From: a virus
DNA: 29,523 nt
Virus genome (UHGV): UHGV-1542943
Direction: 5' to 3' (one strand)
Shown here: piece by piece, positions 189 through 26,647 of the stretch
Position numbering within the stretch: the stretch's first letter is position 1
How the letters are laid out: every line of letters starts with the position of its first letter
Position numbers and translations under genes: made by a program
The notes under the pieces: generated by a model
Seen by the model: the letters and a program-made list of their open reading frames with translations, nothing else
Told to the model about the DNA's origin: nothing
The model's database searches: none

Positions 189-203
189 TTACCTTAAAGG
201 TAT
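189..203. promoter_or_regulatory. Operator-like palindrome TTACCTTAAAGGTAT (one mismatch to TTACC-N5-GGTAA) upstream of the integrase gene
   Basis: Member of the repeated TTACC-N5-GGTAA family; 43 bp upstream of the int start. Confidence 0.45.
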
Positions 204-245
204 ACTCTCATACCGTCATGAAAATGGTTTCTATACGGGTGAATT

Positions 246-1496
246 GTGCTTACCGATACAAAATTAAAAAACCTCAAGCCGCAGGACAAACTGTACAAGG
301 TCTCCGATCGTGACGGGCTGTATGTAGCTGTGCTTACGTCAGGCACGGTCTCGTTTCGCTATGATTACCGTATCAACGGTCGCCGCGAAACACTGGTAAT
401 CGGGCAGTATGGGCGTGACGGTATCAGCCTGGCAGAAGCACGAGAAGAACTGATTGCTGCAAAGAAGCTGCTTAAAGCAGGCCAGTCACCGGCTGCAGCT
501 AAACGTGACGGTATCAAAAAGATTCGTGGTGCCGAGACGTTTGCGGTACATACCGACAGTTATATGAAACACGTCATCCTGGCTGACAGTACCCGCGCAA
601 TGAAGCAGGCGGTGATCGACCGTGACATACTTCCGGTTCTTGGCAACAAAATGATGGCTGAAATTACCACATCGATGGTTCGTGATTTATGTGACCGGAT
701 TGTCGAACGCGGTGGCCGTGCAACAGCAGTGCAGGCCAGGGAGATTATCAGCAGCGTATACCGTCACGCCAATGACCGCGGTCATGGTTTGTTTAATCCT
801 GCGGCTGATATTAAGCCTTCGTCTATCGCCATATTTAAACCACGAGAGCGAACGCTGACACCAGAAGAAATTGGTCTTTTCTTCCGCACGCTGGATGCCA
901 TTGGTGCTATGGGCACTATGAAAATGGCTTTAAAACTGGTGCTTATCACTATGGTTCGTAAAGGCGAATTCACCAATGCAACGTGGGACGAAATAGATTT
1001 TAAAAAATGGACATGGACAATTCCTTCAGACCGCATGAAGGGAAGCCGGGCGCACGTTATTTACCTGCCTAAACAGGCACAGGATATATTGGTTGGGTTG
1101 CAGATGTGCGCTGGTGGAAGTGAATATCTGGTTCCTGGTCGTTACAATTTCCGGAAGCCATTATCTAATGCAGCGCTGAACTCTCTGATCGACAGAACGG
1201 TGAAAATAATAAATGAAAATGGTGAGCATATTCAGGACTTCACCGTACACGATATGCGCCGTACAGCCAGTACGTTGTTGCATGAGGCTGGTTATCCTTC
1301 AGACTGGATTGAAAAGGCTCTGGCACATGAGCAGAAAGGTGTGCGCGCCGTATATAACAAAGCGGAATACGCCAGACAGCGCGCCTACATGTTGCAGCAG
1401 TGGGCCGATATGATTGATTCCTGGATTAACGGGGAGCATACGGATCTGATTCCGTTCTCCCCGTCGAAGTTTGAGAAGTGGATGGCGGGGGAATAA
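246..1496 (+). CDS. int: Tyrosine recombinase, P4/CP4-57-type phage integrase
   Basis: 416 aa; N-terminus TDTKLKNLKPQDKLYKVSDRDGLYVAV..SFRYDYRINGRRE typical of P4-family integrase arm-binding domain; C-terminal catalytic region HDMRRTASTLLHEAGY...VRAVYNKAEY with conserved His, Arg and Tyr. GTG start at 246. Confidence 0.9.
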   Translation: MLTDTKLKNLKPQDKLYKVSDRDGLYVAVLTSGTVSFRYDYRINGRRETLVIGQYGRDGISLAEAREELIAAKKLLKAGQSPAAAKRDGIKKIRGAETFAVHTDSYMKHVILADSTRAMKQAVIDRDILPVLGNKMMAEITTSMVRDLCDRIVERGGRATAVQAREIISSVYRHANDRGHGLFNPAADIKPSSIAIFKPRERTLTPEEIGLFFRTLDAIGAMGTMKMALKLVLITMVRKGEFTNATWDEIDFKKWTWTIPSDRMKGSRAHVIYLPKQAQDILVGLQMCAGGSEYLVPGRYNFRKPLSNAALNSLIDRTVKIINENGEHIQDFTVHDMRRTASTLLHEAGYPSDWIEKALAHEQKGVRAVYNKAEYARQRAYMLQQWADMIDSWINGEHTDLIPFSPSKFEKWMAGE

Positions 1497-1499
1497 CGT

Positions 1500-1694
1500 T
1501 TAATAGTTCTGCTGATTTTCTTCCATCTCGGCTTCTGCTGCCAGTGATTCAATTTTATCTGTGAATATTGCTGACAGTGTTGCAAATTCAGCATCAGTGA
1601 CAGCGGGAATTGGAACAAACCTGATCCCGCTGTGTGCAAGCATGTTTGCAGTTTCAAGGCATTTCCTTAAATCTGCTGGTGATGCCCTGTTCAT
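1500..1694 (-). CDS. Small acidic hypothetical protein (64 aa), translationally coupled to the methyltransferase
   Basis: ATG at 1694-1692 overlaps the methyltransferase TGA stop (ATGA). Product MNRASPADLRKCLETANMLAHSGIRF...EAEMEENQQNY. No family recognised. Confidence 0.4.
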   Translation of the reverse strand: MNRASPADLRKCLETANMLAHSGIRFVPIPAVTDAEFATLSAIFTDKIESLAAEAEMEENQQNY

Positions 1695-2341
1695 GCTGCA
1701 CGCTCCCGCCCCTGGTTGTCTGTTGGTGACAGCGGAGCATTGCTGAATGCATTTGTTAATCCGGCAATATCCAACGCGTATCCTGGGTGTAGTTGCACTG
1801 CCGGGTCTTCGCACTGATTACCCCAAACATCGAAGCCATGAGACGACTGGCGGGCGAACAGTTCAATGCGAGAAACATCGCCTAACAATTGCACAAGTTT
1901 TTCACGAACGACATCTGGTTTTCTTGAATGCTCAAGCCGCGGTGCGGTAAATGACTGAACGATACCTGCATTAATGCGCGGAGGTAGTTTTCCCTTTACC
2001 GCAAACAGGCAATCTTCACTGTTGGCGCGAGTCATGTGTCCCATCCCCATAACCAGTTTATCTGGTTGTCGACTACCACATTTTATCCACGTGAAGCCCT
2101 TCATGGTCATCAGACGGAATCCCCAGGCTTCAACAACTTTTAGTGCTTCGAGTGGTTGTGTTGGCACCCACCACATGGCCAACAGACAGTTTTCACCGGC
2201 CAAATCCCACACAGGAAGGCGGCAGATATCCAGCACACTCATAACCGGATATTTAAAACCGGCACCGCGATTACCATCTGTGGCTTTGTCCCGGTATGCC
2301 CAGGGTGGATCTGCATAGATTAGTGTGTATTTCTTAGTCAT
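1691..2341 (-). CDS. MT-A70 family N6-adenine DNA methyltransferase
   Basis: MTKKYTLIYADPPWAYRDK contains the DPPW catalytic motif; about 216 aa. ATG at 2341 preceded by GGGGTGG. Confidence 0.85.
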   Translation of the reverse strand: MTKKYTLIYADPPWAYRDKATDGNRGAGFKYPVMSVLDICRLPVWDLAGENCLLAMWWVPTQPLEALKVVEAWGFRLMTMKGFTWIKCGSRQPDKLVMGMGHMTRANSEDCLFAVKGKLPPRINAGIVQSFTAPRLEHSRKPDVVREKLVQLLGDVSRIELFARQSSHGFDVWGNQCEDPAVQLHPGYALDIAGLTNAFSNAPLSPTDNQGRERAA

Positions 2342-2633
2342 AAACCACCCCACAACATCCTATGCCGCTATAGTCGCCACGGCGAAGGCCGTTACCTTTT
2401 GTGATACATTGGTCCCTGCGAACCGCGATCCTTGCACGTTCAACATCACCAGAAGCAACATCCATACACTGAAGCCAAAGGTGGGCGGCAATGCGGAACT
2501 GCCCTTTTTTCTCTCTTTCAATCGCGCGTTTTTCGATCTCTATCGCCGCAGGAGTAACGGCAACAACCTTTGAAGGGCTGCGCATTGAAACCTTGTTCAT
2601 GTGATATTTTTCAAGTCGGCTTAACTTTCTCAC
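2334..2633 (-). CDS. Hypothetical protein upstream of and overlapping the methyltransferase start
   Basis: ORF ending TATGACTAA overlaps the methyltransferase ATG. GTG start at 2633 has a GAGAGGG RBS; alternative ATG at 2600. Function unknown. Confidence 0.4.
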   Translation of the reverse strand: MRKLSRLEKYHMNKVSMRSPSKVVAVTPAAIEIEKRAIEREKKGQFRIAAHLWLQCMDVASGDVERARIAVRRDQCITKGNGLRRGDYSGIGCCGVVYD

Positions 2634-2742
2634 TTAATCCAACCCTCTCTGAAAATTAATGCCAGCAGATAAAGCCATGCTGAAACAGAGGCCAGGAATA
2701 AGTACCATCCTGACCATTTGCTCCAGTGCCTTAGCAGCACAC

Positions 2743-2991
2743 TCATGCCGCGTTGCTCACAGGACGATATACACGTTGCTGAACAGGAGGTTTTTTACCC
2801 TGGAACTCTGCCGGGCTTGCTGCCTGACGTTCATCAAGCCAACGCTCAACTTCATCACGGTTCCATGCGCAGCGTTTATCGGTGATATACCAGCGTTTAG
2901 GAAATTCCCCTGCGCGCTCCATACGGTCGATAGTGCTCCATGACAGTGGCACCACCGCCAGGAGTTCCTTCTTACCTAATGCACCTTTCAT
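2743..2991 (-). CDS. alpA: AlpA-family phage transcriptional regulator / excisionase-like DNA-binding protein
   Basis: 82 aa; KKELLAVVPLSWSTIDRMERAGEFPKRWYITDKRCAWNRDEVERWLDERQ matches the AlpA/Xis winged-helix pattern. Confidence 0.8.
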   Translation of the reverse strand: MKGALGKKELLAVVPLSWSTIDRMERAGEFPKRWYITDKRCAWNRDEVERWLDERQAASPAEFQGKKPPVQQRVYRPVSNAA

Positions 2992-3014
2992 AAATACCTC
3001 TCTTGGTTGCAGTG

Positions 3015-3036
3015 CGGCGCGCGTGGCGCCGCGGTG
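3015..3036. repeat. GC-rich perfect inverted repeat between recT and alpA
   Basis: GCGGCGCGCGTGGCGCCGC forms a strong stem; no T-run follows on the minus strand. Confidence 0.4.
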
Positions 3037-3040
3037 GTGG

Positions 3041-3958
3041 TTACATAGATGTTTCGTTTAATTCTTCCCGACGAACGCTGTAAACGTCGGTGGCTTTTGC
3101 CAGCAGTTCGTCATCATCTGAAAGTTTTTGTGCAATGTATTTGTAAGCCTTATCCAGTTCGGAGACAGTGCTGTAATTCATCGCTGCGCTGGTAAAGGCC
3201 ATCAGCATTTCTTCTGGATCACGGCTATCCGCTTTACGCGTTTGCTCATCAGGCTTTTTCACTGTTTTAGCGTTGATCAGACTGTTCATGCTGGATGCTG
3301 TGCCGTGCTTTGCCTGACTTCTTGGAGTTACGTCACGTTCAATAATGTCAGGTGAGTCGATATATTTACCTTCCATTTCCTCAGCTGTGGCTTGTTGACC
3401 AATCTCCGGCCATGCTTTACGTAATGCCTGTGCCTCTGCGCATTTTGCCAACTGCGCATAAGGGCGCTTTTTCCACATGGCATTTGGTGCCGATGTGTCA
3501 CGCCCCCCAGTTGCATAGTTCTCAATCCAGTATTCTTTGGCGCTAAACTCTACGATTTCCCCGCTTGCCATTCGCTTGCTGACGGTGTACTTACACCACT
3601 GAGGGAAGGTAACCTCCACTCCTGAAAGCGTTTGTGTTACATCTGGACCGAACTCAGGTTCATTAGCGCCTGCGTAATCGCCGGAACGGTAGGCCTGAAT
3701 GCGATAAAGTCCAATGCCAGGCATGACCACGTCGCGCCATTCATTCTTTCCACTCTTCGAGTCTTTAACACTCATTGGTACCTGGTGTACCGGCTTAAGA
3801 AGAGGATCGAGTTGACGCGCCCGGCAGTAATCGACTGCCATCATTACCGATTCATCTTTTGCCCCAGGGTAAATACTGTTTTTCAGAGCGCTCCATGTAA
3901 CTTCATCGATTCCCCGAATAGCCAACACATCATTGGTGATTGCAATTTCGTTGCTCAT
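3041..3958 (-). CDS. recT: RecT/Bet-family single-strand annealing protein
   Basis: 305 aa from ATG at 3958, which overlaps the exonuclease stop (ATGA). Typical RecT features, an acidic C-terminus, and position beside an exonuclease gene. Confidence 0.8.
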   Translation of the reverse strand: MSNEIAITNDVLAIRGIDEVTWSALKNSIYPGAKDESVMMAVDYCRARQLDPLLKPVHQVPMSVKDSKSGKNEWRDVVMPGIGLYRIQAYRSGDYAGANEPEFGPDVTQTLSGVEVTFPQWCKYTVSKRMASGEIVEFSAKEYWIENYATGGRDTSAPNAMWKKRPYAQLAKCAEAQALRKAWPEIGQQATAEEMEGKYIDSPDIIERDVTPRSQAKHGTASSMNSLINAKTVKKPDEQTRKADSRDPEEMLMAFTSAAMNYSTVSELDKAYKYIAQKLSDDDELLAKATDVYSVRREELNETSM

Positions 3959-4776
3959 ACGTACATATCCTGTTTGCGTGCCCACTCAGGGCGTTTAATA
4001 ATTTCCACGCCGCCCCATTCATCGCTGATGCGGCATTCGTGATAGGTATTCAGATCCCGGCGGAACAGAGCGTGCCCGGCATCGACATCCGGCGCATCCA
4101 GCCCGAACACGCGTACCGGATACCGACCACAATCAATGCTTTCGCTCACGGCAAGAAAGAAAAAACCATGCGGCTGACCAGTAACCCTCATTGCGCCTTC
4201 GCGGTACATTGCGTCCTGCACGTGGTAGCGGAATTCCTCGATGTGACGTGCAAAACGGTCCATATCTGCAACCTTTTTCACGTCGACGATCACGTTGTGC
4301 TCGTTCAGCCATTTGTCTGGACGAATTCGGCACAACTCACCCGTCTCTTCATCGTTCCAGTACATTGATGCTTCGCAGTAACCAGGTGCTTCCAGCATCC
4401 AGCGTGCCGCCGGGTGAGCCATTGCGCTATCACGCATCAGCTCCAGTTTCCGCCACTGCTCGGCATCAAGTACCGTAATCCCCATATCCGCTACATCACG
4501 AAGAAATGCTTCTTCGTCAGCTTTACCTTGTTTCGTCCGACGATCGAACTTCGGTGAAACAATGAAGCGTTTGTCGAATTCTCCAGGCTCCAGAAGCAGA
4601 CAGTGCAATGCGGTTCCCATATCCAGTGCAGACTTTTTCTCTTCGTCTTCTGGTGCTGCCTGAACCCATTTAAGAAGCGCCGGATTCTTGGCAACCATGT
4701 CCAGTTGCGACTTACTCACGCCGTCACCGGCGTGGTAGTCTTCGTTGCTGATGTCGAAATAAATTCCCGGTTTCAT
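3955..4776 (-). CDS. PD-(D/E)XK exonuclease (RecE C-terminal / YqaJ-like recombination exonuclease)
   Basis: 273 aa; motif ..CRIRPDKWLNEHNVIVDVKKV (D..D-x-K) plus upstream His and Glu residues typical of PDDEXK recombination exonucleases; adjacent to RecT. Confidence 0.75.
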   Translation of the reverse strand: MKPGIYFDISNEDYHAGDGVSKSQLDMVAKNPALLKWVQAAPEDEEKKSALDMGTALHCLLLEPGEFDKRFIVSPKFDRRTKQGKADEEAFLRDVADMGITVLDAEQWRKLELMRDSAMAHPAARWMLEAPGYCEASMYWNDEETGELCRIRPDKWLNEHNVIVDVKKVADMDRFARHIEEFRYHVQDAMYREGAMRVTGQPHGFFFLAVSESIDCGRYPVRVFGLDAPDVDAGHALFRRDLNTYHECRISDEWGGVEIIKRPEWARKQDMYV

Positions 4777-5072
4777 GCCGCTTCCCTCTGCCCATCAATC
4801 CGATCCGCCAGATCCCAGCGGGCGATAATTGCCATTGCCTCGCGCCGGTAGGCATCCATAAGTTCTTCGAACTCAGGGCTGTCTTTAGCTGCCTCCAGCA
4901 CTTCCTGGCGAACTCCTTTGCCTGTTACAGCGTCAAAAGTTGAGGCCAGTTGATGAAGCCGGATGCTCTCGATCAGTTCAACTTGTCGGTCATATAGCTG
5001 TTCTGACAGGCGGTAGTCCTTGTCGAATGCCAGCATGATTTTTTGAAGATTTTTCTGCTGATTAACGTTCAT
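4773..5072 (-). CDS. Hypothetical early protein (99 aa) at the position occupied by anti-RecBCD/kil-type genes in lambdoid phages
   Basis: ATG at 5072 preceded by GGGAGGG. Product MNVNQQKNLQKIMLAFDKDYRLSEQLYDRQ.. has no recognised family; function inferred only from position. Confidence 0.45.
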   Translation of the reverse strand: MNVNQQKNLQKIMLAFDKDYRLSEQLYDRQVELIESIRLHQLASTFDAVTGKGVRQEVLEAAKDSPEFEELMDAYRREAMAIIARWDLADRIDGQREAA

Positions 5073-5087
5073 TATCAGCCCTCCCAT

Positions 5088-5228: not shown

Positions 5229-5246
5229 ACTTGTTACCTCGGTCTG

Positions 5247-5261
5247 TTACCGTTGAGGTAA
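5247..5261. promoter_or_regulatory. Operator TTACCGTTGAGGTAA (perfect palindrome), leftward early promoter region
   Basis: Perfect TTACC-N5-GGTAA; followed by GGTAATAAT, a -10-like element. Confidence 0.6.
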
Positions 5262-5308: not shown

Positions 5309-5323
5309 TTACCCATTAGGTAA
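5309..5323. promoter_or_regulatory. Operator TTACCCATTAGGTAA (perfect palindrome), leftward early promoter region
   Basis: Second perfect site 62 bp from the first, between the repressor terminator and the early-left genes. Confidence 0.6.
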
Positions 5324-5334
5324 TCGAATAGGCA

Positions 5335-5380: not shown

Positions 5381-5965
5381 TTATTGTTTGTTTTTTTCGT
5401 TCTGGTTGATGACAAATTCAATGTAACTTTCGATCTTTGCTTTCTCGGTTTCGGGTAACAATGCGTAGCGCGAGCGATCATAGTTGATGGTCGCAGGGTC
5501 GTGCGGGTGAATCAGTAATTCATAGCCGTGACGCCCGAATGCGGATGCAACATTCTCCAGGGTGGAAATGGAAACGCTGACCTCATTGTTTAACAGGCGG
5601 CTGATTGTCACCTGGGCGACGCCGGATGCGCGGTGTAGTTTTCCCTGCGTTGAAAGGTCGCGGCTTTCGCTCATCCAGCGTTCCAGGTTGTGAGCCGCCA
5701 GCTGACCTATATCGCTCGGGCCGACAGGCTGAAAACCTTCCTGAGAAAGCGAGCGATCGATATCAAGCCAGTTACGGGGTTTATTGGCGGCAGCTTCAAT
5801 TTTTCGTGCAACCTGGTCGCCGATAACCTTCTTGCCAAGAGCCCAGCGGTTTACCAGATTTGCCTGAGTTCCAAGTTTTTCTGCCATCCGCGTCTGAACA
5901 CCATTGAATTCACGGTCGATCAAGTCGTTGAGATTTTGCCTGCGGACGTCCTGGATACTTTTCAT
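5381..5965 (-). CDS. Prophage repressor-like protein with two helix-turn-helix domains and no LexA-type peptidase domain
   Basis: 194 aa. First HTH around VQTRMAEKLGTQANLVNRWALGKKVIGDQVARKI; second XRE-like HTH around LHRASGVAQVTISRLLNNEVSVSISTLENVASAFG. No S24 Ser/Lys autocleavage module seen. Divergent from the Cro-like gene. Confidence 0.65.
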   Translation of the reverse strand: MKSIQDVRRQNLNDLIDREFNGVQTRMAEKLGTQANLVNRWALGKKVIGDQVARKIEAAANKPRNWLDIDRSLSQEGFQPVGPSDIGQLAAHNLERWMSESRDLSTQGKLHRASGVAQVTISRLLNNEVSVSISTLENVASAFGRHGYELLIHPHDPATINYDRSRYALLPETEKAKIESYIEFVINQNEKNKQ

Positions 5966-6020: not shown

Positions 6021-6035
6021 TTACCCAACAGGTAA
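6021..6035. promoter_or_regulatory. Operator TTACCCAACAGGTAA (perfect), rightward operator site 1
   Basis: Perfect palindrome in the divergent repressor/cro intergenic region. Confidence 0.6.
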
Positions 6036-6037
6036 AT

Positions 6038-6052
6038 GCACCTCATAGGTAA
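6038..6052. promoter_or_regulatory. Degenerate operator GCACCTCATAGGTAA, rightward operator site 2
   Basis: Right half-site perfect, left half degenerate; 17 bp centre-to-centre from site 1. Confidence 0.4.
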
Positions 6053-6068
6053 CTATCCTTGATTTTTG

Positions 6069-6083
6069 TTACCTTATGGGTGA
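6069..6083. promoter_or_regulatory. Near-perfect operator TTACCTTATGGGTGA, rightward operator site 3, overlapping a candidate rightward promoter
   Basis: Lies between a TTGATT -35-like hexamer and a GAATAT -10-like hexamer upstream of the Cro-like gene. Confidence 0.45.
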
Positions 6084-6119: not shown

Positions 6120-6350
6120 ATGAGCGATAACGGACATTTCGATTTCAAAAAGCACTGGCTTGCACTTACTCCGGATGAGCGTGAAGCCTTCGCACAGGAA
6201 GCCGGAACGACGAGTCACTATATCCAGACTCACTTAACAGGTAAGCGCAAAATGCCAGGTAAAGTATTGATGAATGGGCTTTTTAAAGCCTGTAAAACAA
6301 GACAATGGCTGCGCTCAAAAGCAGAACTGGCATACTTCTTCTACTCATGA
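6120..6350 (+). CDS. Cro/YdaS-like small HTH regulator
   Basis: 76 aa, divergent from the repressor; LTPDEREAFAQEAGTTSHYIQTHLTGKRKMP resembles Cro/YdaS-type HTH proteins. Confidence 0.6.
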   Translation: MSDNGHFDFKKHWLALTPDEREAFAQEAGTTSHYIQTHLTGKRKMPGKVLMNGLFKACKTRQWLRSKAELAYFFYS

Positions 6351-6372
6351 TATCCAGCTACAACCCTCTGTA

Positions 6373-6395
6373 GACCGCCACCCGGCGGTCTTTTC
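6373..6395 (+). terminator. Rho-independent terminator between the Cro-like gene and the replication genes
   Basis: GACCGCC-accc-GGCGGTC followed by TTTT. Confidence 0.6.
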
Positions 6396-6500
6396 ATATC
6401 TATTCGTACCTCAAAGGTAATAAATAACCAAATCTGGTTGATCTTTTTTTTGTGTCAGCACAAAATGACCGTAATCCCAATACTAATAACAGGGCTTACC

Positions 6501-14631: not shown

Positions 14632-15479
14632 ATGTGCATGGGTAGCTCACCATCAGTGCCTGCAACACCAGAAGTTCAGGCAGCACCACAGGAGCAGGAT
14701 GCCGCCGTTGTTGATGCCCGCGACGAAGAAACACGTCGCCGTCGCGCTGCTGCTGGTCGTAGTTCTACGCTGCTTACCGTGCGGAATATACAATCAGTGT
14801 TTCTGGTGGTGCGTACTTCACCAGTAGTGATGTCGGCGCGCAACTACAGTTCCCTTATACCGGAACTGATCCTGATACTGGCGATGAGGTGTCAAAAGAA
14901 TTACGTTGCGACATTATTTCTGTAACCAGCAATACCGCTGTAGTGGTTCGTGCTAACAGGAACGTCCCGCCATCCCTCAGGAATGTGGCCACCACGAACT
15001 GGCAGATGGCGCGCCGGACATTTGGAGGCCTGTCTCATCTTGAAGGCCAGACCGTAAACATTCTCTCTGATGCGAACGTGGAACCACAGAAAGTAGTTTC
15101 CGGAGGTGCCGTCACGCTGGAATCTCCGGGGGCTGTAGTGCACATCGGCCTGCCAATAACTGCTGAATTCGAAACACTGGATATCAACATTAGCGGACAG
15201 GAAACGCTGCTGGACAAAAAACAGGTGATCCCGTCCGTTACTCTGGTTGTGAATGCCAGTCGCGGCATCTGGGCGACTACGCCCGGCGGTAAATGGTACG
15301 AATATCCACAGCGTGAATTCGAGTTCTACGATGATCCTGTTGATGATGCTACCGGAAAAGTAGAAGTGAAACTGGACAGTAACTGGGGCAAAAACGGACG
15401 TGTAAAAATCCGTCAGCTTGACCCGTTGCCGCTGTCTGTTCTTGCCGTTATTCCTCGCCTTACTGTTGGGGGATTCTGA
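14632..15479 (+). pseudogene. Virion structural gene with an apparent single-base frameshift near 14770-14780
   Basis: Frame starting at ATG 14632 (GGAG RBS) gives MCMGSSPSVPATPEVQ..AAAGRSSTLLT; a different frame is open from 14763 to the stop at 15477-15479 (..SGGAYFTSSDVGAQLQFPYTGTD..), and that stop overlaps the next gene's start. Confidence 0.4.
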
Positions 15480-19265: not shown

Positions 19266-22200
19266 TGCCGATATATGAACAGGATCCTAAAGAGTTGCTT
19301 GGCGAGGATATTCAGCAAATAGCAGCACCTGATGACAGTAATTTCTATATGGAAACACCTTCTTTGCTTTCTGCTGTGAACCCATTTACCAGTGATCAAC
19401 GCGTTCAAAGGTCTAGACAAGCAGCATTTCGTATAGATAACACGCTGGGTAGCTTTATTGCCAGTGCTCCTTTCAGTCAGTTTGACAGGGTTGAAGGATA
19501 TAACCCATTTGATAACGATGCAGCAGATATTAAAGGCTATGAAGATTTTGCAGATTCGTTTATCAACTCCGGTTCGCCTGAAGAAACAATGGCAATTAAA
19601 CATCGAATCGATCAGCAGAGAGCTGACATGGAATACAATTCAGGCTTGGGATTTGCTGGTACAGTCTCTTCTGTAGCAATGAGATTAGCAGATCCATTCA
19701 ATGCGATTTCTATGTTTATTCCGTTCGGCGCTGTCGTTCGTGGCGGTCGTATTGCAGAAACAGCCGGGCGTTTTGCCCTGGCGAATGCTGCTGGCAGTGT
19801 TGCTTCAGAGGCCGCATTACAGGCCACTCAGGAAGCTCGCTCACCGATGGAGAGCGTATCGAACGTTGTTGTTGATGCTCTCGTTGGTGGGATCCTTGGT
19901 GCTGGTGCACAGCTACTTGCTGGACCTGGCGCGCGCGAGGCAGTGGTTAACTCAGTAGGTAATCATTTGCGAGGTATGGATTCTCCTCAAAGCATTGGTG
20001 CAGCTCAGGTTTTCAATACCACACTCGATCAGGAACAGCTCGCTGGACTTGGACTTGCTAACAAAACGTTGAGTGTCACTCCTGCTGGCCGCTTGGCGCA
20101 ATCACCATCTCTTGTCTCCCGTCAGATTAACCAGCAGCTTGCCGAAAATAACTATTTCTTCGCCAAAAATGATGAGGGGTTGGCTACGTTTACGGCAGTC
20201 GAGACTAAGATTAAGCAATACGACGCCATGCTTTATAAGCAGATGGAAGCCACTCGTGATGCTTACCAGCAGTACAGCAAATCTGTTAGCGCCCGCGGCG
20301 TGAAGAGGATGAACTTTATTGATTTCAATGAAGCTGTTGGCATGGCTATGCGCCGTGGTGATCAGAGTGATATTCCTGAGGTTTCACAAGCAGCCGCCAG
20401 AATCCGCCCCATTTTCGAGACCACAAAAGCCCGTATGCAGGAACTGGGGATCCTTCCTAAGGATATCGATGTCGTGACGGCGAAAAGTTATCTTCCCCGC
20501 ATTTATAAGTTCGATAAGATACTTTCCGACCGCACTGAATTCAGAGGGCGAATTGCCAACTGGATACAAGGGATTAGTGCCAAAGGTGCTGACAAAGCAG
20601 GTCAGCGAATTGAAAGGATAAATTCATTGCTAAAAACTGCAGAGGAATCGGCACCGCACGCTGATGCTCTCGCTAGTGAAATCGCTGAAGCGGAGAAATG
20701 GTCTGGTAAAAAAATTCTACTCATGGAAGAACTGGATAAACGAAATAAGCTTATATCTCAGGAGACTGACACACAGGCGCGTCTTACAAGAATAGAAAAA
20801 GAGTTGGCCGAGACTTCATCAGAAAAACTTCAGGCAAGAATGATGAAAGAAAGCTCTGACCTTAAAACACGCCTTGATGATATAGCGCAGGCAAAGAGTG
20901 AGCTTCCTGTCTATCAGCGCCATATGGAGTTGTTGGATAATCCACGGAAATATCGTTCTGAGCTTCGCCGACTGCAAAAACGGGCAAATTCAACCACAAG
21001 GCTGAATGCAAGCCGCGAACGAGCACTGAAGCAGATGGAGCCTCTATCCCGAGAGGAAGCAGAGGACGCTGCTGACGAGATCGTGAATAAAATAATAGGC
21101 GCACCTTCCGGGCTTGTACCAGCCGATATTATCCCAGAGAGACTCGTTGGTCGGGCTGGTTTCACTAAAAGCAGAACGCTGCTTATTCCTGATGAGCGTA
21201 TAGAAGATTTTCTTGAATCAGATGTTAACTACATCATGGAAAGTTATCTCCGGCAGGTGGCACCAGAAATTGAGCTGACTGCGCAGTTTGGCCGTAAAGA
21301 TATGGGGGAGCAAATCCGTCAGGTTAGTGAGGAATATACCCGGCTAATAAAAGAGGCTAAAACACCTAAACGACGTGCAGTTCTTGAGAAGCAACGGGAG
21401 GCTGATATTAGGGATATTACGGCTATGCGTGATCGACTGCTTGGTACTTACGGTGCACCTCAAGATCCACGCAGTTTCTTTGTTCGTGCCGGGCGAGTTG
21501 CTAGGAATATTAACTTCCTCCGTTTGCTTGGTGGAATGACCGTCTCCGCTGCAACTGATCTGATGCGACCGATGATGCAGCATGGCCTGAGAAAATCTCT
21601 CGGACCAATGGTAAGCATGCTTAAAAATATGGACTCAGTGAAGATTGCAACCAGGGATTTGCGAGAAATGGCCGTTGGGCTTGATTATGTCCTGTCTACG
21701 CGTACAAAGGCTATAGCGGATCTTACTGACCCATATAGCCGGAGAAGCGCCGCTGAGCGAGGCCTGAACTGGATGACGCAGAAATTCGGTAACTGGACGC
21801 TGATGAATCAGTGGAACAGCGCACTTAAATCATGGTCCGGGATGATAGTGCAGTCGAGGATACTTGACGCGGCTCGCCAAGTTTCTGCTGGTGGCACGCT
21901 CTCCAAAAGTGAAATGCGGAAGATGGCACAGGTCGGCATCAATGAAGATGTTCTGCGCCGAATCGGGGAGCAATTCGGGAAGCACGGAGAGGATATGGAC
22001 GGGCTGTTAACCGGGCATAGTCATCTGTGGGATGACCGTTTCGCTAGAGAGATTTTCCAGTCTGCAGTGCTGAAAGATGTAGACTCAGTGATTGTAACGC
22101 CTGGCGTAGGTGATACACCGCTGTTTTTTAGTAAAGAAGGCTGGAAGATGATCACGCAGTTCAAAACGTTTATCTTCGCACAGCATAACAGGGTGCTAGT

Positions 22201-22654: not shown

Positions 22655-22655
22655 G

Positions 22656-23507
22656 ATGAAAAAAATAAATTTGTTTTTTGGCATAGTGCTTTCAATAGTC
22701 TCTGTAAATCCTACAGCTGCCAGTTCATTGCAATGCAATAAGGATAACTTTGATGCATGCAAAACGTGTGAACAATTATCAAAGGCTATCGACTTAAAAG
22801 AACCTAATCGTGGCGATTACTATAGAGGGGCTTTATGGAATGGGCTTTACGCCTCTTATGTAATTAATTGCCCTGTGGTTGCTGAGAAGTTACTGAGCCA
22901 TGGTGCTATACCATCATATGGCGGATATATGGGGTCTATGGGGGCGGTTCTGACAGGAAAATGGCCTCATAACAATGAATCAATAAATCTTTCATGGGCA
23001 GATTTGCTTATAAAACATGGATTTGATGTTAATAGGCATACGGGGAATTATAAATCAGCTACTGAAGTATGGGCTATAGATAAAAAACAGATTGAATATA
23101 AGTCAGTTTTTGACAAGTTAATTCAATCCAGCGAAGTAAAACCACTCGATCCTTCAAGAAATTTAGAATGGTGTGCGTCTGAAGGGTATCGCTCAGTTGT
23201 CGTTTATTCCCTTAACTCATGTATAGAAAATGCTATAAAACGTTTGGATGATGGTGTTTCTTCAGCGTCTGATATTTCATCAGCAGCCGTAAATTCCTGT
23301 ACTAGCGATGTAGAAAATTTCAATAAGCATTTGGTATGCAAAGCAGCTGTTAAAGAAAACTCTGATAAAGAGAGAAGCAACGTTTACCAGTTATTAACCA
23401 GTGATAGTCAAATGAATAAAAATGTTATTGATATGCTGAAGGAAAGAAATATTGAAACGGTTCTTGAATTTAGAGCTGAAAATCGATCAGCGAAAACTGC
23501 ACAGTGA
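22656..23507 (+). CDS. AT-rich cargo gene encoding a secreted/periplasmic Cys-containing protein (283 aa)
   Basis: Sec-type signal peptide MKKINLFFGIVLSIVSVNPTAAS; ATG 2 nt after the stop of the 1129-aa gene; markedly AT-rich; followed by a terminator. Confidence 0.6.
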   Translation: MKKINLFFGIVLSIVSVNPTAASSLQCNKDNFDACKTCEQLSKAIDLKEPNRGDYYRGALWNGLYASYVINCPVVAEKLLSHGAIPSYGGYMGSMGAVLTGKWPHNNESINLSWADLLIKHGFDVNRHTGNYKSATEVWAIDKKQIEYKSVFDKLIQSSEVKPLDPSRNLEWCASEGYRSVVVYSLNSCIENAIKRLDDGVSSASDISSAAVNSCTSDVENFNKHLVCKAAVKENSDKERSNVYQLLTSDSQMNKNVIDMLKERNIETVLEFRAENRSAKTAQ

Positions 23508-23510
23508 TCA

Positions 23511-23538
23511 AACAGGCCGCTTTCGCGGCCTTGTTTTT
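23511..23538 (+). terminator. Rho-independent terminator ending the late operon
   Basis: GGCCGC-tttc-GCGGCC followed by TTGTTTTT. Confidence 0.7.
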
Positions 23539-23575
23539 AACGAATGCCACCGCCACCCGGGCGGGAATCCGCAGA

Positions 23576-23600
23576 CACAAAAAAGCCCGCAACGCGGGCT
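23576..23600 (-). terminator. Rho-independent terminator for the minus-strand toxin operon
   Basis: GCCCGC-gttg-GCGGGC followed by TTTTTT on the minus strand, immediately after the stop at 23600-23602. Confidence 0.65.
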
Positions 23601-24137
23601 TATTCCTTCCATTTATCAGAAAAAAGATCTTCTTCTAAAGGCATTGGTTCTGTTTTTGTTTTCTGAAAGAATTGATAACTGATAGTGATTGCTGCCTCTT
23701 TAAACTCTTCTTGCTCAGTTATGTTGTGGGCATCTGCGTCAACAAAAAACATAACCAGCGCATCACGATTGTGATTTACCGAATAAACTAAAAAGCAATC
23801 ACTTGTTGGTATGCATTTTACTTGCACAGACGCTATATGCATCCCAAGATGATTTTTTACCAGTGTGTTTTTTATCACTATCTTCTGGAATATAGTCTTG
23901 GTTATCGACATGAGTATGCCTGACATTTAGTTTAAGCATTTCTGTCGGACGAGCAAATGCAGCATCTTTACCAAGAGATGGATGGTATCCCGTTTTCCAA
24001 TACTGGGTAAAGGCATCAGATACTTTCTTCAGCTCAAGATCAGATGCACAAAGGGCCGAGAAATTTTGCGTATGCAATACTCGACCCTTATATCTGACAA
24101 TTTGATTTTTATCATTCTGCGACGCAGACGAACTCAT
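23600..24137 (-). pseudogene. YafO-like toxin gene split across two overlapping frames (23799-24137 and 23600-23926)
   Basis: Frame A (MSSSASQ...LGKDAAFARPTEMLKLNVRHTHV) and frame B (..SDCFLVYSVNHNRDALVMFFV..) each resemble consecutive parts of E. coli YafO as recalled from memory (..FGRDALY...VAHIHL..., ..AHLVYCQGAFDEQAWLL..). The 128-nt overlap contains two T6/A6 homopolymer tracts (23853-23858, 23868-23873). Confidence 0.4.
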
Positions 24138-24291
24138 AATTTTCCTTATTGTTACGAGAATCAAAGAAAGCGCGGGATACGCGACTTGCGTGATCTTTTG
24201 TCATAGTAACTTTTACGTACTCTACGCTTCCATTGAAAGAACGTCTTGCGGCAGCTTGCGCTCTACGCATCTGCAATTTTTCGTTTCGCAT
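24112..24291 (-). CDS. Small basic protein (59 aa) upstream of and overlapping the toxin-like gene; candidate antitoxin
   Basis: MRNEKLQMRRAQAAARRSFNGSVEYVKVTMTKDHASRVSRAFF...; its stop overlaps the toxin start by 26 nt, and the toxin ATG has an AAGGAAAA RBS. Not similar to YafN by eye. Confidence 0.4.
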   Translation of the reverse strand: MRNEKLQMRRAQAAARRSFNGSVEYVKVTMTKDHASRVSRAFFDSRNNKENYEFVCVAE

Positions 24292-24351
24292 GACATTACC
24301 TCATATCTCATAAGTTCATTACACGGATTAATAAAAATGAAACCAATCCGT

Positions 24352-24366
24352 TTACCCTTGAGGTAA
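24352..24366. promoter_or_regulatory. Operator TTACCCTTGAGGTAA (perfect)
   Basis: Between the antirepressor gene end and the toxin operon start. Confidence 0.6.
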
Positions 24367-24438
24367 TAGTACGCTATTCACCCACAGTCTGCAATCTGTA
24401 CAGAATTATTTAAAGGCACATCCCTGTGCCGCCGCCCG

Positions 24439-25149
24439 TCAGAAGAACCCAGCCTTGTCGTTGATGTACTCCGCGTGCGTCTGGATATCACGCAGGCATT
24501 TGCTCACACCGACGATGTAGCAGAACATGGTGGTCAGTTCCGCCGCCGCGCCCGATACGTCATGCCCGTCTTCCTGTAACTGGTTCAGCAAATTCATCAG
24601 CAGTGAGTTCTCCGTCAGGCCGAGAACACCAGACGGCGAGTGAATCAGGCTGCGGTAGCCGGGCTTCAGTGGGGCACTGTAGGTTTTGTTCTCTATCTTC
24701 ATCGCCTGCATCACTGCTGATGCTGTGGCGTTTGCAACCTGGTCGGCAACCATCTTTATGCGTTCTTCCTGCGGGAGCGAGTTTTTAATGTAACTTCCGG
24801 TGCGGCGGATCTGAGGAAGAACCTCACCTGTAACCCATTTACGAAAGCGGTAGGGGATAGTGCCTGGTGTCACTGCGTCGCGACAGCGGAGGATCAGTGT
24901 GTAGAGGCCTGACTCGGAGATGATGTTGATCTCTTTTACTCGGCTGTCAAAAATTGCACGATGTTCATGCCCTATGTTGAACATAGACCTTTCATCATCA
25001 TCCAGTTTTTCAAGTGCTTGGGTGACGTTTTGGATACGCAGCGCACTACAAACGTCTTGGGCTACAAACCATGGTTGGCCATCGATAATGATGGAACGGA
25101 TAGGGTTAACAGATTCAAATTTGAAGATGGCAGTTTGAGCATTAGCCAT
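24439..25149 (-). CDS. Bro-N domain antirepressor (Ant-like)
   Basis: N-terminal ..FKFESVNPIRSIIIDGQPWFVAQDVCSALRIQNVTQALEKLDDDE is a classic Bro-N signature; C-terminal antirepressor-type domain; ATG at 25149 with a GGAG RBS. Confidence 0.8.
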   Translation of the reverse strand: MANAQTAIFKFESVNPIRSIIIDGQPWFVAQDVCSALRIQNVTQALEKLDDDERSMFNIGHEHRAIFDSRVKEINIISESGLYTLILRCRDAVTPGTIPYRFRKWVTGEVLPQIRRTGSYIKNSLPQEERIKMVADQVANATASAVMQAMKIENKTYSAPLKPGYRSLIHSPSGVLGLTENSLLMNLLNQLQEDGHDVSGAAAELTTMFCYIVGVSKCLRDIQTHAEYINDKAGFF

Positions 25150-25418
25150 GGTGGTTATCTCCACTTAGTGATTTTAATCACCACCGCAACGCCAATTACT
25201 GGTGGTGAACTGGACAAGGTTGGCGTACCGGCCTAAGTGGTACCGGCGTCCTTTCGGACCCCTGCCCAGCCCACCATAATTCGGATATAGCTGTGCTTAA
25301 CGCATAAAAAAAACACGTCTGGCGTGGTATGCGCCACTTAGTAACTCGGGACGCCAATCCCGGCACTGGATTTTGCCAGTACCCGATTACTATGGCACAA
25401 GAGGAGTGCGATGTAAAT

Positions 25419-25433
25419 TTACCGCAAAGGTAA
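25419..25433. promoter_or_regulatory. Operator TTACCGCAAAGGTAA (perfect)
   Basis: In the 380-bp divergent intergenic region between the antirepressor and the 25547 gene. Confidence 0.6.
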
Positions 25434-25511
25434 TGATAAACGCGAAGAAATATTAAAATCAACCGTATTTGGTTGATTGCGTTTAACGCTTGATCACCTG
25501 AAAGCAAGATA

Positions 25512-25526
25512 TTACCTTTAAGGTAA
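25512..25526. promoter_or_regulatory. Operator TTACCTTTAAGGTAA (perfect)
   Basis: 20 bp upstream of the ATG at 25547. Confidence 0.6.
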
Positions 25527-25546
25527 TGTTATTGTGAGGAAAAGCA

Positions 25547-26275
25547 ATGGAAGTTTTCTGGATAGTTGTTGGTGTGGTTGCGGTGATTATTTACGTTATC
25601 AACCAGAACAAGACTAAGATCTCTGATCGTACGGTCGTTAATCATAACAAAACGATAAAGACCGAAGATGGGGAGATAACGATTAATCGTACACAGGTGA
25701 TAGAACACACCTCTACTCAGTTTCAAAAAACTGGAGGTAATGCGCCTAATATTTCCGCACCTCCTGCTTATGATAGTGCGGTAATCCAGACATATTATAA
25801 ACAGCAGGAGTTAGCAAAAGAGAGGCAACTGATTCAGCCAAAGCCGTTTACAGCTGAGCTTCCACCTGGAGTGTCAACGCGTCCGGCATATCATGGAAGA
25901 TTCCCTGGTGATGACATATCGTCTCAGTCATCTAAAAAAGCACCTCAGGCAGTATCAGAGCCAGCAAGAATACCTTCTGTATCGCCGCCAAAAGAAGAAT
26001 CAGCTAACAGAGTTTCAAGTGGTAGCAAGCAGTGCTTGCGATGCAGAATAAACCTACCATATGAAAAATTCAGGAAATCGTCAAAAAATCCAGATGGATT
26101 GACTAAGTGGTGTGCAAGGTGTCTCGATGGCCCAAAGAATACACGCCATATGAAGTGGTGCCCAATTTGTAATGTCCGCAGAAAACGAACCAGCTTTTAC
26201 CCTAATAATCAAAATGCGGACGGATTAATGGCATGGTGCAAAACGTGCTGGGATGAGCACAAAGCGAAACGATAG
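25547..26275 (+). CDS. Membrane-anchored protein with two C-terminal C4 zinc-ribbon-like units
   Basis: N-terminal TM helix MEVFWIVVGVVAVIIYVI, low-complexity linker, then CLRC..(PDGLTKW)CARC..(KW)CPIC..(DGLMAW)CKTC; GAGG RBS. Confidence 0.55.
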   Translation: MEVFWIVVGVVAVIIYVINQNKTKISDRTVVNHNKTIKTEDGEITINRTQVIEHTSTQFQKTGGNAPNISAPPAYDSAVIQTYYKQQELAKERQLIQPKPFTAELPPGVSTRPAYHGRFPGDDISSQSSKKAPQAVSEPARIPSVSPPKEESANRVSSGSKQCLRCRINLPYEKFRKSSKNPDGLTKWCARCLDGPKNTRHMKWCPICNVRRKRTSFYPNNQNADGLMAWCKTCWDEHKAKR

Positions 26276-26297
26276 GCCGCTCTTGCGGCCTTTAAAT
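26275..26297 (+). terminator. Hairpin terminator between convergent genes
   Basis: GGCCGC-tctt-GCGGCC followed by TTTAAATTT. Confidence 0.55.
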
Positions 26298-26570
26298 TTA
26301 CCGGGTTTGTTTTCGTAATTGTTCGGCACAATAGTCGAGATGTGTTTGCAGATCCTGCATAGACATCTGTGAGCTGGTGACGTAGTTAATCAGTGCAGTC
26401 AGTTCGGCAAGTGGGCCATCGACATTAAATCCATCCTTATCGAGATCCCGGAGTAATTTCATCAAGTGCGATCCCTCCACCAGTGACCTGACGCCTCCCG
26501 GCGTGTGAATCCTTTCGGTAAATCCGTCTTCCAGTGGATAGTGATACTGCTGCATCTTAATCTTCTCCAT
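26298..26570 (-). CDS. Stand-alone paralog of the antirepressor C-terminal domain (85-90 aa)
   Basis: ..RIHTPGGVRSLVEGSHLMKLLRDLDKDGFNVDGPLAELTALINYV..DLQTHLDY aligns with Ant ..LIHSPSGVLGLTENSLLMNLLNQLQEDGHDVSGAAAELTTMFCYI..DIQTHAEY at roughly 45% identity by eye. ATG at 26555 has a GGAGAAG RBS. Confidence 0.55.
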   Translation of the reverse strand: MEKIKMQQYHYPLEDGFTERIHTPGGVRSLVEGSHLMKLLRDLDKDGFNVDGPLAELTALINYVTSSQMSMQDLQTHLDYCAEQLRKQTR

Positions 26571-26632
26571 GCAATAACTGTATATTTATACAGTATCAAA
26601 TAATTTGTTTGCTATCCAGCACGTTTTGCAAA

Positions 26633-26647
26633 TTACCTGAAAGGTAA
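26633..26647. promoter_or_regulatory. Operator TTACCTGAAAGGTAA (perfect) upstream of the tailspike gene
   Basis: Perfect palindrome in the divergent region; a GGTAAT half-site lies at 26689. Confidence 0.6.

Follow-up and report, generated by a model that had tools for sequence, protein, structure and literature searches.

A dispersed palindrome in a Uetakevirus prophage as the probable operator of the lysogeny repressor Rep

Introduction

Which protein reads a 15-bp palindrome, TTACC-N5-GGTAA, that recurs at transcription-unit starts along an entire prophage? The question is raised by the virus genome UHGV-1542943, analysed here over its whole 29,523 nucleotides (the window), which is a Uetakevirus (ε15/phiV10-type) prophage of E. 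coli located at guaA. The gene map was drawn from the PGAP annotation of the closest relative and from homology, and on this map 7.7% of the window is non-coding. The prophage is missing 7 kb of head genes. The genome is made up of many short transcription units, most of them beginning just past a terminator, and nearly every start carries one to three copies of the motif. The units concerned are int, PL, the rep/cro switch, replication, the nin block, terS, the head operon, three accessory modules, the isrK-C4-antirepressor module and ant/tailspike.

Distribution of the palindrome

The eleven perfect copies listed in the initial annotation were all recovered, in number and position (5247, 5309, 6021, 8352, 8414, 10990, 14527, 24352, 25419, 25512 and 26633). 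Five copies carry one mismatch (189, 6069, 6406, 11008 and 13910) and another carries two (6038); every imperfect copy reported initially (189, 6038, 6069, 11008 and 13910) was found, but 6406 had been overlooked. Intergenic placement had also been claimed and holds for all 17 sites; the chance of eleven perfect sites out of eleven falling in non-coding DNA is ~6e-13. The remaining two-mismatch matches lie inside coding sequence (18/18), which is the pattern of a chance background. Of the 13 intergenic gaps that measure 60 bp or more, 11 contain one site or several, in agreement with the claim of one palindrome at nearly every transcription-unit start. Dinucleotide-preserving shuffles contained a mean of 0.01 perfect sites and never reached eleven. 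As a host control, a sample of 166 kb of E. coli and Klebsiella chromosome yielded a single perfect site (~6 per Mb), whereas the 29.5 kb of prophage hold 11 (~370 per Mb).

Sites at individual transcription units

The int and early/immunity regions contain the following features.

39-55: attL core, upstream of site 189
189..203: one-mismatch site TTACCTTAAAGGTAT, between the attL core and the int start, 43 bp short of the latter
246: int start
5247..5261: PL site 1, perfect, abutting the -10 and covering the predicted +1 of the leftward early promoter
5289-5261, minus strand: predicted PL, TTGACA-17-AATTAT
5309..5323: PL site 2, perfect, just past the rep terminator and preceding the PL -35
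5360-5341: rep terminator
5381..5965, minus strand: Rep, prophage repressor, with N-terminal HTH, middle dimerisation and C-terminal tetramerisation/Ant-binding domains
6021..6035: switch site 1, perfect, between rep and the cro-like gene, overlapping a weak leftward promoter-like match for rep
6038..6052: switch site 2, degenerate (GCACC...GGTAA, two mismatches)
6059-6064: invariant -35 (TTGATT) of the rightward promoter PR
6069..6083: switch site 3, one mismatch (GGTGA), filling the spacer between the PR -35 and -10
6120..6350, plus strand: Cro-like small regulator, homologue of phiV10 p41 (phrog_35 'transcriptional repressor', E = 5.6e-13)
6406..6420: one-mismatch site GTACCTCAAAGGTAA, right after terminator 6372-6391, preceding the replication genes

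The two PL sites lie 62 bp apart centre-to-centre, a spacing of 62-63 bp being kept in relatives. Switch site 2 has a perfect counterpart in epsilon15, SPC32H and the Klebsiella phage, and site 6406 is conserved in phiV10-type relatives and Tyrion.

Further sites accompany the nin block, terS, the head operon and a leftward promoter at 13.9 kb.

8352..8366: nin-block site 1, perfect
8414..8428: nin-block site 2, perfect, 62 bp from site 1, its right half 3 nt before ATG 8432 and overlapping the ribosome-binding region
10562-10903: N15-gp46-like regulator (p55)
10990..11004: terS site, perfect, 20 bp past terminator 10953-10970; ATG 11025, where terS probably starts, lies 21 nt further on
11008..11022: one-mismatch match over the terS Shine-Dalgarno (AAGGTGG) and start codon
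13087-13881, minus strand: accessory gene, phrog_4780
13910..13924: one-mismatch site extending over the spacer and -10 of a leftward promoter close to consensus
13935-13907: this predicted leftward promoter, ATGACC-17-TATAAT, driving gene 13087-13881
14527..14541: head-operon site, perfect, upstream of a gp3-like gene

The terS and head-operon sites are the counterparts of the epsilon15 'protein_bind repressor' features 12-27 and 2931-2947, respectively. The match at 11008 is doubtful as an operator, since its invariant bases are those of the Shine-Dalgarno and start codon and their conservation may reflect translation signals more than protein binding.

The accessory islands and the ant/tailspike region complete the series.

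24352..24366: perfect site separating the stop of the Bro-N gene from leftward small-ORF/DUF2335 genes
24439..25148, minus strand: Bro-N domain protein, antirepressor-type (Pfam Bro-N, E = 1e-19), likely start ATG 25148 with SD GGAGA
25308-25382 and 25198-25281, minus strand: isrK-like RNA and C4 antisense RNA, upstream of the Bro-N gene
25419..25433: perfect site where the isrK-C4-Bro-N (antirepressor-type) unit, transcribed leftward, has its promoters
25512..25526: perfect site, 93 bp from site 25419; the rightward accessory gene starts 21 nt further on
25547-26275, plus strand: accessory gene
26298..26570, minus strand: Ant, small SPC32H-type antirepressor, divergent from the tailspike gene
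26578..26593: perfect LexA (SOS) box CTGTATATTTATACAG, directly in front of ant
26633..26647: perfect site between the divergent ant and tailspike genes, the latter starting 105 bp further on, at 26752

Equivalents of site 24352 occur in strain PAR (L005 38854) and EC.W1-9 (26831), and site 26633 is the counterpart of the epsilon15 'protein_bind repressor' 19895-19911. Site 25419 abuts the -35 of TTTACA-17-CATAGT, whose predicted start (25382) is the 5' end of the isrK match, and also covers the +1 of TTGATT-18-TATCAT; the offset from site to isrK, 34-37 nt, is alike in phiV10, Tyrion and the Klebsiella phage. It is centred near -44 of the isrK promoter, a position that could activate as well as repress. 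Both RNAs exceed the Rfam gathering score (RF01394, 58.6 bits; RF01695, 66 bits), and overexpression of the ZX5 'ORF4 anti-repressor', likewise a Bro-N protein, promotes the lytic cycle (PMC9782041). The gene labels of the initial annotation were right in part: the SPC32H-type antirepressor is the gene at 26298-26570, which is 88% identical to SPC32H Ant (E = 4.4e-47 to PDB 5D50 chain E), and the Bro-N gene appears to be a second antirepressor-type module, under predicted C4-RNA control. No evidence for the 'toxin operon' of that annotation was found in the window.

Promoter-like matches overlap sites at PL, PR, 13.9 kb and 25.4 kb, and the earlier suggestion that sites lie inside promoters agrees with the predicted core elements overlapped at PL, PR and the 13.9-kb leftward promoter, although most promoter positions are uncertain and the A/T-rich flank GGTAAtaat mimics a -10, which inflates the apparent overlaps.

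Conservation in related phages

Nine relatives, whose hosts belong to the five genera Escherichia, Salmonella, Klebsiella, Enterobacter and Serratia, have sites at the syntenic positions (the comparison comprised phiV10, EC.W1-9, SPC32H, epsilon15, E. coli PAR, Klebsiella ST512-KPC3phi13.3, Enterobacter Tyrion, a Serratia prophage and further E. coli prophages). When their intergenic regions are aligned, half-sites are kept and spacers drift: half-site columns hold 1.6-2.0 bits against 0-0.8 bits in spacer and flank columns, and at both nin sites all ten half-site bases are invariant and all five spacer bases variable (site 8352 across 8 genomes), so the spacer is indeed unconstrained, as first proposed. 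Certain mismatches are themselves conserved, namely GGTAT before int (identical and syntenic in 7/7 relatives compared), GTACC after cro and GGTGA in PR, without compensation on the opposite arm, and among 80 distinct copies there is no compensatory change. Such one-sided mismatches argue for reading by a protein and against a hairpin.

The Rep repressor as reader

Rep (5381-5965), one of the two phage regulators named initially, is by far the most plausible candidate. It is 100% identical to phiV10 p40, as is ZX5 Rep, and along its entire length it matches SPC32H Rep (PDB 5D50; E = 4e-42). Conservation is highest in the N-terminal domain (54-56% against 33-43% for the middle domain), where residues N36-W41 of the putative recognition helix are invariant, and this matches the unchanged half-site. 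A Pfam domain search found no S24 or LexA-like cleavage domain in Rep. According to published summaries, the SPC32H Rep tetramer binds palindromic sites through paired N-terminal domains and is dismantled by Ant, its HTH_3 Pfam region being the middle dimerisation domain (PMC9638917; PMC9986798). The initial annotation had allowed for either a dimeric or a two-domain HTH reader of half-sites one helical turn apart. That spacing is confirmed, and the SPC32H homology makes a two-domain monomer unlikely.

Because the motif is over-represented, exclusively intergenic, syntenic, rare in the host and annotated in epsilon15, and because Rep has the homology described, we consider the palindromes very probably to be operators of Rep, the lysogeny repressor of the Uetakevirus (epsilon15/phiV10/SPC32H) family.

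Alternative explanations

The dispersed sites could instead be read mainly by another phage regulator, Rep being confined to PL and PR; the Cro-like protein, a PerC-like activator and the N15-gp46-like protein are candidates, and the sites would then time the lytic phase, for instance, or be bound by an activator. Cro-type proteins classically share the operators of the repressor, and the isrK-promoter site is placed as for an activator. Moreover, all motif-bearing genomes carry the rest of the Uetakevirus backbone too, and throughout the genus these regulators equal Rep in conservation, so synteny cannot separate them from the motif. Nevertheless, we regard this explanation as unlikely: PL, PR and dispersed sites form one indistinguishable consensus, conservation of the Rep N-terminal domain parallels that of the motif, the epsilon15 annotation ascribes the sites to the repressor, and Rep overexpression by itself silences lysis-gene transcripts of ZX5, lowering those of holin and endolysin by 99.97-99.99% (PMC9782041). 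A more restricted role of the Cro-like protein, as second reader of the switch operators, is possible.

It is highly improbable that the repeats are structural or genomic signals, that is, RNA or DNA hairpins, methylation or restriction targets, or recombination joints of mosaic modules. The phage does encode an MT-A70 methyltransferase, the arms can pair as a 5-7 bp hairpin, and 11 of 98 BLAST block boundaries between window and relatives lie no more than 20 bp from a site, a zone that makes up 2.8% of the sequence. However, the hairpins are weak (-3 to -7 kcal/mol, z-scores -0.4 to -2.5) and lack compensatory changes, methylation or restriction targets would not be expected solely in the non-coding fraction, and boundary enrichment is expected of any intergenic feature, some boundaries being record ends. 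Recruitment of a host transcription factor, for which one might invoke the many regulators shared by the five host genera, is equally improbable given the rarity of the motif in host DNA and the phage-encoded HTH repressor family that accompanies every instance of it, and no E. coli regulator is known to us to recognise such a consensus.

A model for silencing and induction

Homology and the published SPC32H work suggest that a pair of Rep N-terminal HTH domains would read TTACC and GGTAA, which lie on the same helix face since half-site centres are 10 bp apart. With two such pairs, a Rep tetramer could hold two operators together, and the operators that bracket the PL and nin-block regions at 62 bp are probably bound cooperatively by a single tetramer. 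In the lysogen, Rep would occupy every operator and silence each unit directly, by sitting on the +1/-10 at PL, in the promoter spacer at PR and the 13.9-kb promoter, and on the leader/ribosome-binding region at the second nin operator. Induction would proceed without Rep cleavage: upon DNA damage LexA would leave the SOS box before ant, and Ant would then separate Rep tetramers, opening all units at once. The second, Bro-N antirepressor would be kept behind a Rep operator and the C4 antisense RNA. Simultaneous derepression of all units would not by itself account for a temporal order of early and late genes.

Comparison with known systems

The arrangement recalls lambda OL/OR, with three sites between the divergent rep and cro-like genes, two to three at PL and one inside PR. 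Unlike CI, Rep has no recognizable S24/LexA-like cleavage domain, forms a tetramer of other architecture and has operators beyond the immunity region. Mycobacteriophage L5 and Bxb1 stoperators likewise distribute repressor sites throughout a prophage and silence the whole genome. They are asymmetric 13-mers in one orientation to transcription, often within operons, and block elongating polymerase, whereas the window sites are symmetric, restricted to unit starts, and overlap or flank promoters.

To our knowledge, P1 C1 is a monomeric reader and has no detectable relation to Rep. Its operators are asymmetric 17-mers (ATTGCTCTAATAAATTT), in contrast to symmetric sites probably read by the paired HTH domains of a tetramer. 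C1 has 22 dispersed operators, including Op51 before the c4-icd-ant (immI) operon (PMC8546580). As proposed for Rep, it silences many scattered operons of an enterobacterial prophage and is inactivated by antirepressor proteins, not by cleavage, and the isrK-C4-Bro-N unit resembles immI in placing an operator before a C4-antisense-RNA/antirepressor module.

The Rep-Ant-LexA lysogeny switch of SPC32H (PDB 5D4Z, 5D50) is said to be the subject of Kim & Ryu 2013 and Kim et al. 2016. This phage shares with the window a Rep homologous from end to end, an 88% identical Ant, the SOS box before ant and, in its genome, the same palindromes; second-hand summaries of the published work treat the switch and the protein complex rather than the genome-wide operator distribution.

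The closest parallel, epsilon15, belongs to the same genus and has a homologous repressor, only 42% identical overall. Its predicted repressor operators reportedly stem from Kropinski et al. 2007. The records (AY150271.2 / NC_004775.2) annotate ATTACC-N5-GGTAAT as 'protein_bind: repressor; lysogeny' at seven dispersed sites, these features being predictions: one each precedes terS and the head operon, another lies at ant/tail fibre, three are at PL and one is at the nin block, the same positions as in the window. They mark just 7 of the 11 perfect matches in epsilon15 (15 with one mismatch), omitting the rep/cro switch, the second nin site and a lysis-operon site, and the window phage has additional sites at 13910, 24352, 25419 and 25512, in accessory modules absent from epsilon15. 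The novelty for enterobacterial prophages put forward initially is thus not upheld, the identical motif having been annotated in epsilon15 and P1 C1 being an older precedent (PMC8546580). The reading of the palindromes as one regulon is itself supported, with a motif already known as the predicted epsilon15 repressor operator.

Distribution of the palindrome

The 15-bp palindrome TTACC-N5-GGTAA forms a real, strongly non-random and biologically meaningful pattern in this prophage. A search for TTACCNNNNNGGTAA returned exactly the 11 perfect copies claimed in the initial annotation, against a mean of 0.01 copies and a maximum of 1 in dinucleotide-preserving shuffled controls. The imperfect copies claimed were recovered as well, with one mismatch at 189, 6069, 11008 and 13910 and two at 6038, and a mismatch-tolerant search added an overlooked one-mismatch site at 6406-6420. 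On a gene map that drew on homology, on RNA genes and on PGAP calls for the E. coli PAR prophage, which is the closest complete relative, non-coding DNA makes up 7.7% of the window and contains 17/17 sites; the probability that 11/11 perfect sites would be non-coding by chance is about 6e-13. The motif is not spread through coding DNA, and the other two-mismatch matches (18/18) lie in coding sequence, as expected of random background. Intergenic gaps of 60 bp or more number 13; 11 hold a site, and the site-free ones are 2634-2742 and the convergent terminator gap 23508-23599. The sampled host chromosome yielded 1 perfect site in 166 kb (about 6 per Mb) versus about 370 per Mb in the window.

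The prophage and its decay

The window represents a Uetakevirus prophage (epsilon15/phiV10 type), 97-98% identical in shared parts to phiV10, EC.W1-9, TL-2011b and ZX5. Its insertion site is the 3' end of guaA, and the published att core lies at 39-55. Its gene order is int, leftward recombination genes, rep, cro-like, replication, nin-like block, terS and terL, virion, accessory, ant and tailspike. At the junction 14774-14779, about 7 kb present in all relatives is missing (equivalent to 9982 -> 16990 in EC.W1-9 and 21880 -> 29205 in the PAR prophage). The loss comprises most of the gp3-like gene, the genes for portal, protease, major capsid, cement and staple proteins and tail tube A, and the sequence encoding the N-terminal portion of the large tail protein. 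Because this stretch is missing and the junction occurs in 0/5,426 complete E. coli genomes, either the prophage is defective or its junction is an artefact of assembly. The overlapping ORFs 23600-23926(-) and 23799-24164(-) match consecutive parts of phrog_1651, annotated as DUF2335 in PAR where the gene is intact; in the window this gene is probably frameshifted, a second sign of decay.

A tRNA-Arg (anticodon TCT) lies at 14128-14204(-), between an accessory gene and the head operon; its phiV10 counterpart (2856-2929) is unannotated and overlaps the annotated CDS p04. The PGAP and RefSeq start of terS, TTG 10944, makes two operator matches and a terminator-like hairpin (10953-10970) part of the CDS. 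Since the SD AAGGTGG and the epsilon15 and EC.W1-9 annotations favour ATG 11025, terS is probably over-extended in the phiV10 RefSeq and PGAP records. Enterobacter phage Tyrion carries an Rfam int-alpA RNA match at 2605-2669(-) (44 bits, gathering score 35.8), with no counterpart above the Rfam threshold in the window.

Conservation of the half-sites

The motif is syntenic in phiV10, EC.W1-9, SPC32H, epsilon15 and the PAR prophage, in Klebsiella phage ST512-KPC3phi13.3 and Tyrion, in a Serratia prophage whose repressor Rep is 54% identical to that of the window and in two further E. coli prophages (Rep 65% identical). All the Uetakevirus syntenic places are matched: int, the leftward early promoter PL, the rep/cro switch, the nin block, terS, the head operon and ant/tail fibre. 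Every enterobacterial relative found through TerL or Rep searches shares one Rep family and one motif; the motif is absent from Pseudomonas phage PseuP_224, a different phage encoding a distant homologue of the Rep N-terminal domain.

In an alignment of 13 syntenic site groups comprising 80 distinct sequences, the half-site columns carry 1.6-2.0 bits and the spacer and flank columns 0-0.8 bits. At both nin-block sites, compared across eight genomes, 10/10 half-site bases are invariant and 5/5 spacer bases variable. Where a site deviates in a conserved way (GGTAT at int, GTACC after cro and GGTGA at the rightward promoter PR), only one arm is changed and the other never compensates. A role as an RNA or DNA hairpin is rejected, and a protein reading the half-sites indicated, because these deviations lack compensatory change, the half-sites are conserved and folding energies are weak.

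The ends of homology blocks between the window and relatives often lie at or beside operators (window 13911, 13941, 25423, 25440, 14521-14527 and 8435). Block ends no more than 20 bp from a site number 11/98, versus 2.8% of the sequence, a fourfold enrichment for which intergenic location and record ends are confounders. Module exchange may use the invariant 15-mers as joints, or the enrichment may only mirror their intergenic location.

Rep, the predicted reader

The predicted lysogeny repressor Rep is encoded by ORF 5381-5965(-), next to the densest site cluster. Its sequence matches phiV10 p40 and the ZX5 repressor at 100% identity, which makes the predicted reader the Rep of well-studied phiV10-type phages. 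It shows the domain layout of the Rep family (N-terminal HTH, middle, C-terminal) and gives a full-length alignment to SPC32H Rep (PDB 5D50; E = 4e-42). Two secondary sources describe SPC32H Rep as having N-terminal DNA-binding, middle dimerisation and C-terminal tetramerisation domains; its tetramer binds palindromic sites, each DNA-binding pair being formed by N-terminal domains of different dimers, and its two middle-domain pairs lie about 100 Å apart (PMC9986798, PMC9638917). A dimeric or two-domain HTH reader had been proposed. The dimeric option agrees with this architecture; a two-domain monomer does not, since the Pfam HTH_3 match of window Rep (residues 106-147) corresponds to the middle-domain region when aligned to SPC32H Rep, in which pairs of N-terminal domains bind.

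Across the family, identity is highest in the N-terminal domain (54-56%, versus 33-43% in the middle domain), and the stretch N36-L-V-N-R-W41 is invariant. This conserved N-terminal domain fits the unchanged half-site in phages whose Rep proteins are as little as 42-45% identical overall. Pfam gives HTH families only for window Rep, and a peptidase S24 domain is absent; in its homologue SPC32H Rep, a tetramerisation domain is described where CI has S24 (PMC9986798). Window Rep differs in this from lambda CI-type (LexA-like) repressors, which have a C-terminal S24 autocleavage domain. One of the units said to be controlled, a 'toxin operon', finds no support for a toxin in any family search: the sole such name is a weak YdaS_toxin Pfam match inside the Rep HTH domain itself. 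Judged by all the defining features that sequence can test, the window sites are assigned to the Uetakevirus (epsilon15/SPC32H-type) Rep operator set.

Induction circuit

The small antirepressor Ant, encoded at 26298-26570(-), shares 88% identity with SPC32H Ant and also matches chain E of 5D50. A perfect SOS box, CTGTATATTTATACAG, lies at 26578-26593, directly upstream of ant. Given an ant homologue, an SOS box and a Rep without cleavage domain, the published SPC32H logic appears to be present: LexA would hold ant, released Ant would dismantle Rep, and induction would proceed without repressor cleavage. Between the window and SPC32H, Ant is 88% identical and Rep just 42%; by domain, Rep identity is 54% (N-terminal), 51% (C-terminal, Ant-binding/tetramerisation) and 33% (middle). 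In ZX5, Rep overexpression abolished free phage and lowered holin and endolysin transcripts by 99.97-99.99% (PMC9782041), which is consistent with direct Rep control of late units. A second CTGT-N8-ACAG match, CTGTACTGGTTTACAG, occurs at 13997-14012 near the 13.9-kb accessory promoter region and may be fortuitous, about 0.4 being expected by chance in the window.

Site anatomy and proposed silencing mechanism

The sites stand where units begin; the gaps that hold them measure 117-246 bp and show promoter-like or terminator-like signals. Most clusters come after a terminator-like hairpin (100-123, 5360-5341, 6372-6391, 10953-10970, 13964-13949). The genome can therefore be read as a series of units insulated from one another, each beginning anew at a region that bears operators. 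Only PL, PR, the 13.9-kb promoter and the isrK promoter were retained as credible.

Operator arrangements at promoters and at the nin block
5289-5261, minus: PL, near-consensus TTGACA-17-AATTAT, flanked by two operators 62 bp apart, one covering the -10 edge and +1
PR: one-mismatch site filling the promoter spacer, with an invariant -35 (TTGATT) on one side and the -10 on the other
13.9-kb promoter: ATGACC-17-TATAAT, driving an accessory gene, with a site across spacer and -10
nin block: two operators 62 bp apart, the downstream one abutting the start codon

Many consensus-mapped coincidences of site centre and transcription start were dismissed; the A/T flank of the site (GGTAAtaat) itself resembles a -10, which makes promoter assignment elsewhere unsafe. 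The operator spacing of 62-63 bp, close to six helical turns, is kept in all relatives at PL and nin, and such pairs would be bound cooperatively, probably by one Rep tetramer.

A broader reading, which we regard as rather unlikely when taken as a whole, would add Rep to P1 C1 and L5 gp71 as a third kind of repressor that silences a whole prophage. The two DNA-binding pairs of Rep, about 100 Å apart, would clamp the 62-bp operator pairs around PL and nin; Rep might also loop and condense the prophage by bridging single operators that lie far apart; each new accessory module would bring, or soon gain, its own operator; and the invariant 15-mers might double as module-exchange joints. If so, the accessory 'morons' would differ from classical ones in staying silent in the lysogen and firing on induction.

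An isrK-C4-antirepressor module

Two RNA genes lie directly upstream of, and on the same strand as, a Bro-N antirepressor-type gene at 24439-25148(-).

RNA matches upstream of the Bro-N gene
25308-25382, minus: isrK-like RNA (Rfam, 58.6 bits, above gathering score)
25198-25281, minus: C4 antisense RNA (Rfam, 66 bits, above gathering score)

As read from the sequence, the leader is complementary, over the Bro-N ribosome-binding site, to the C4 loop CCACUUAGG and 3' arm UCACCACC. A predicted promoter, TTTACA-17-CATAGT, has its start at 25382, the exact 5' end of the isrK match, and the operator 25419-25433 adjoins its -35. The order operator-isrK-C4-antirepressor, with an offset of 34-37 nt, is also found in phiV10, Tyrion and the Klebsiella phage; the module is absent from epsilon15 and SPC32H. 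The unit has the arrangement that defines a P1 immI-like second antirepressor module and is predicted to be one.

Prior annotation and apparently undescribed features

The initial annotation had presented the regulon as undescribed for enterobacterial prophages, and this novelty does not hold. The epsilon15 records (RefSeq NC_004775.2, GenBank AY150271.2) contain seven features 'protein_bind, bound moiety repressor, lysogeny', the sequence of each being (A)TTACC-N5-GGTAAT.

Repressor-binding features annotated in the epsilon15 record
12-27; 2931-2947; 19895-19911; 32479-32494; 32554-32570; 32616-32632; 35906-35922

These features lie ahead of terS, ahead of the head operon and between gene 19 (the ant homologue) and the tail fibre, with three more at PL and one ahead of the nin-like block, and their locations match those of the window sites reported initially. 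The annotation is incomplete: the epsilon15 genome has 11 perfect and 4 one-mismatch matches, the rep/cro switch sites being among those unmarked. Because the record marks this sequence as repressor sites at dispersed places, the notion that scattered operon starts in an enterobacterial podovirus share one repressor palindrome is already public, on the basis of GenBank features; motif, repressor assignment and dispersed placement all stand in the record of the genus type species. That member has had these sites in public annotation since the 2000s, and the repressor-antirepressor pair of the genus has crystal structures. The phiV10-type E. coli phages serve as O157 reporter phages, and their records leave the operators unannotated.

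A full-text literature search for the motif string returned nothing relevant, and no published demonstration of Rep occupancy at late-gene and accessory-gene sites was found in the accessible literature. Within the literature checked, the predicted operators of accessory modules, the conserved bracketing by pairs 62 bp apart and the apparent coupling of a Rep operator to isrK-C4-antirepressor are undescribed.

Comparison with mycobacteriophage stoperators and P1 C1

The regulon had been likened to mycobacteriophage stoperators, and a loose resemblance to those of L5 stands; the defining features of stoperators, namely asymmetric, oriented and intragenic sites, are lacking. Stoperators are asymmetric and have a single orientation with respect to transcription, whereas the window site is a perfect palindrome. 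In placement, stoperators lie inside operons or in short gaps between genes and affect elongation rather than promoters, whereas the window sites stand at unit starts.

A second precedent, overlooked initially, is the P1 repressor C1, which has 22 dispersed operators with the asymmetric 17-bp consensus ATTGCTCTAATAAATTT (PMC8546580). By analogy, the window operator system would work like that of C1; the window motif is different and symmetric. In P1, a C1 operator controls c4-icd-ant, and the Rep operator at isrK-C4-Bro-N would be its parallel in the window.
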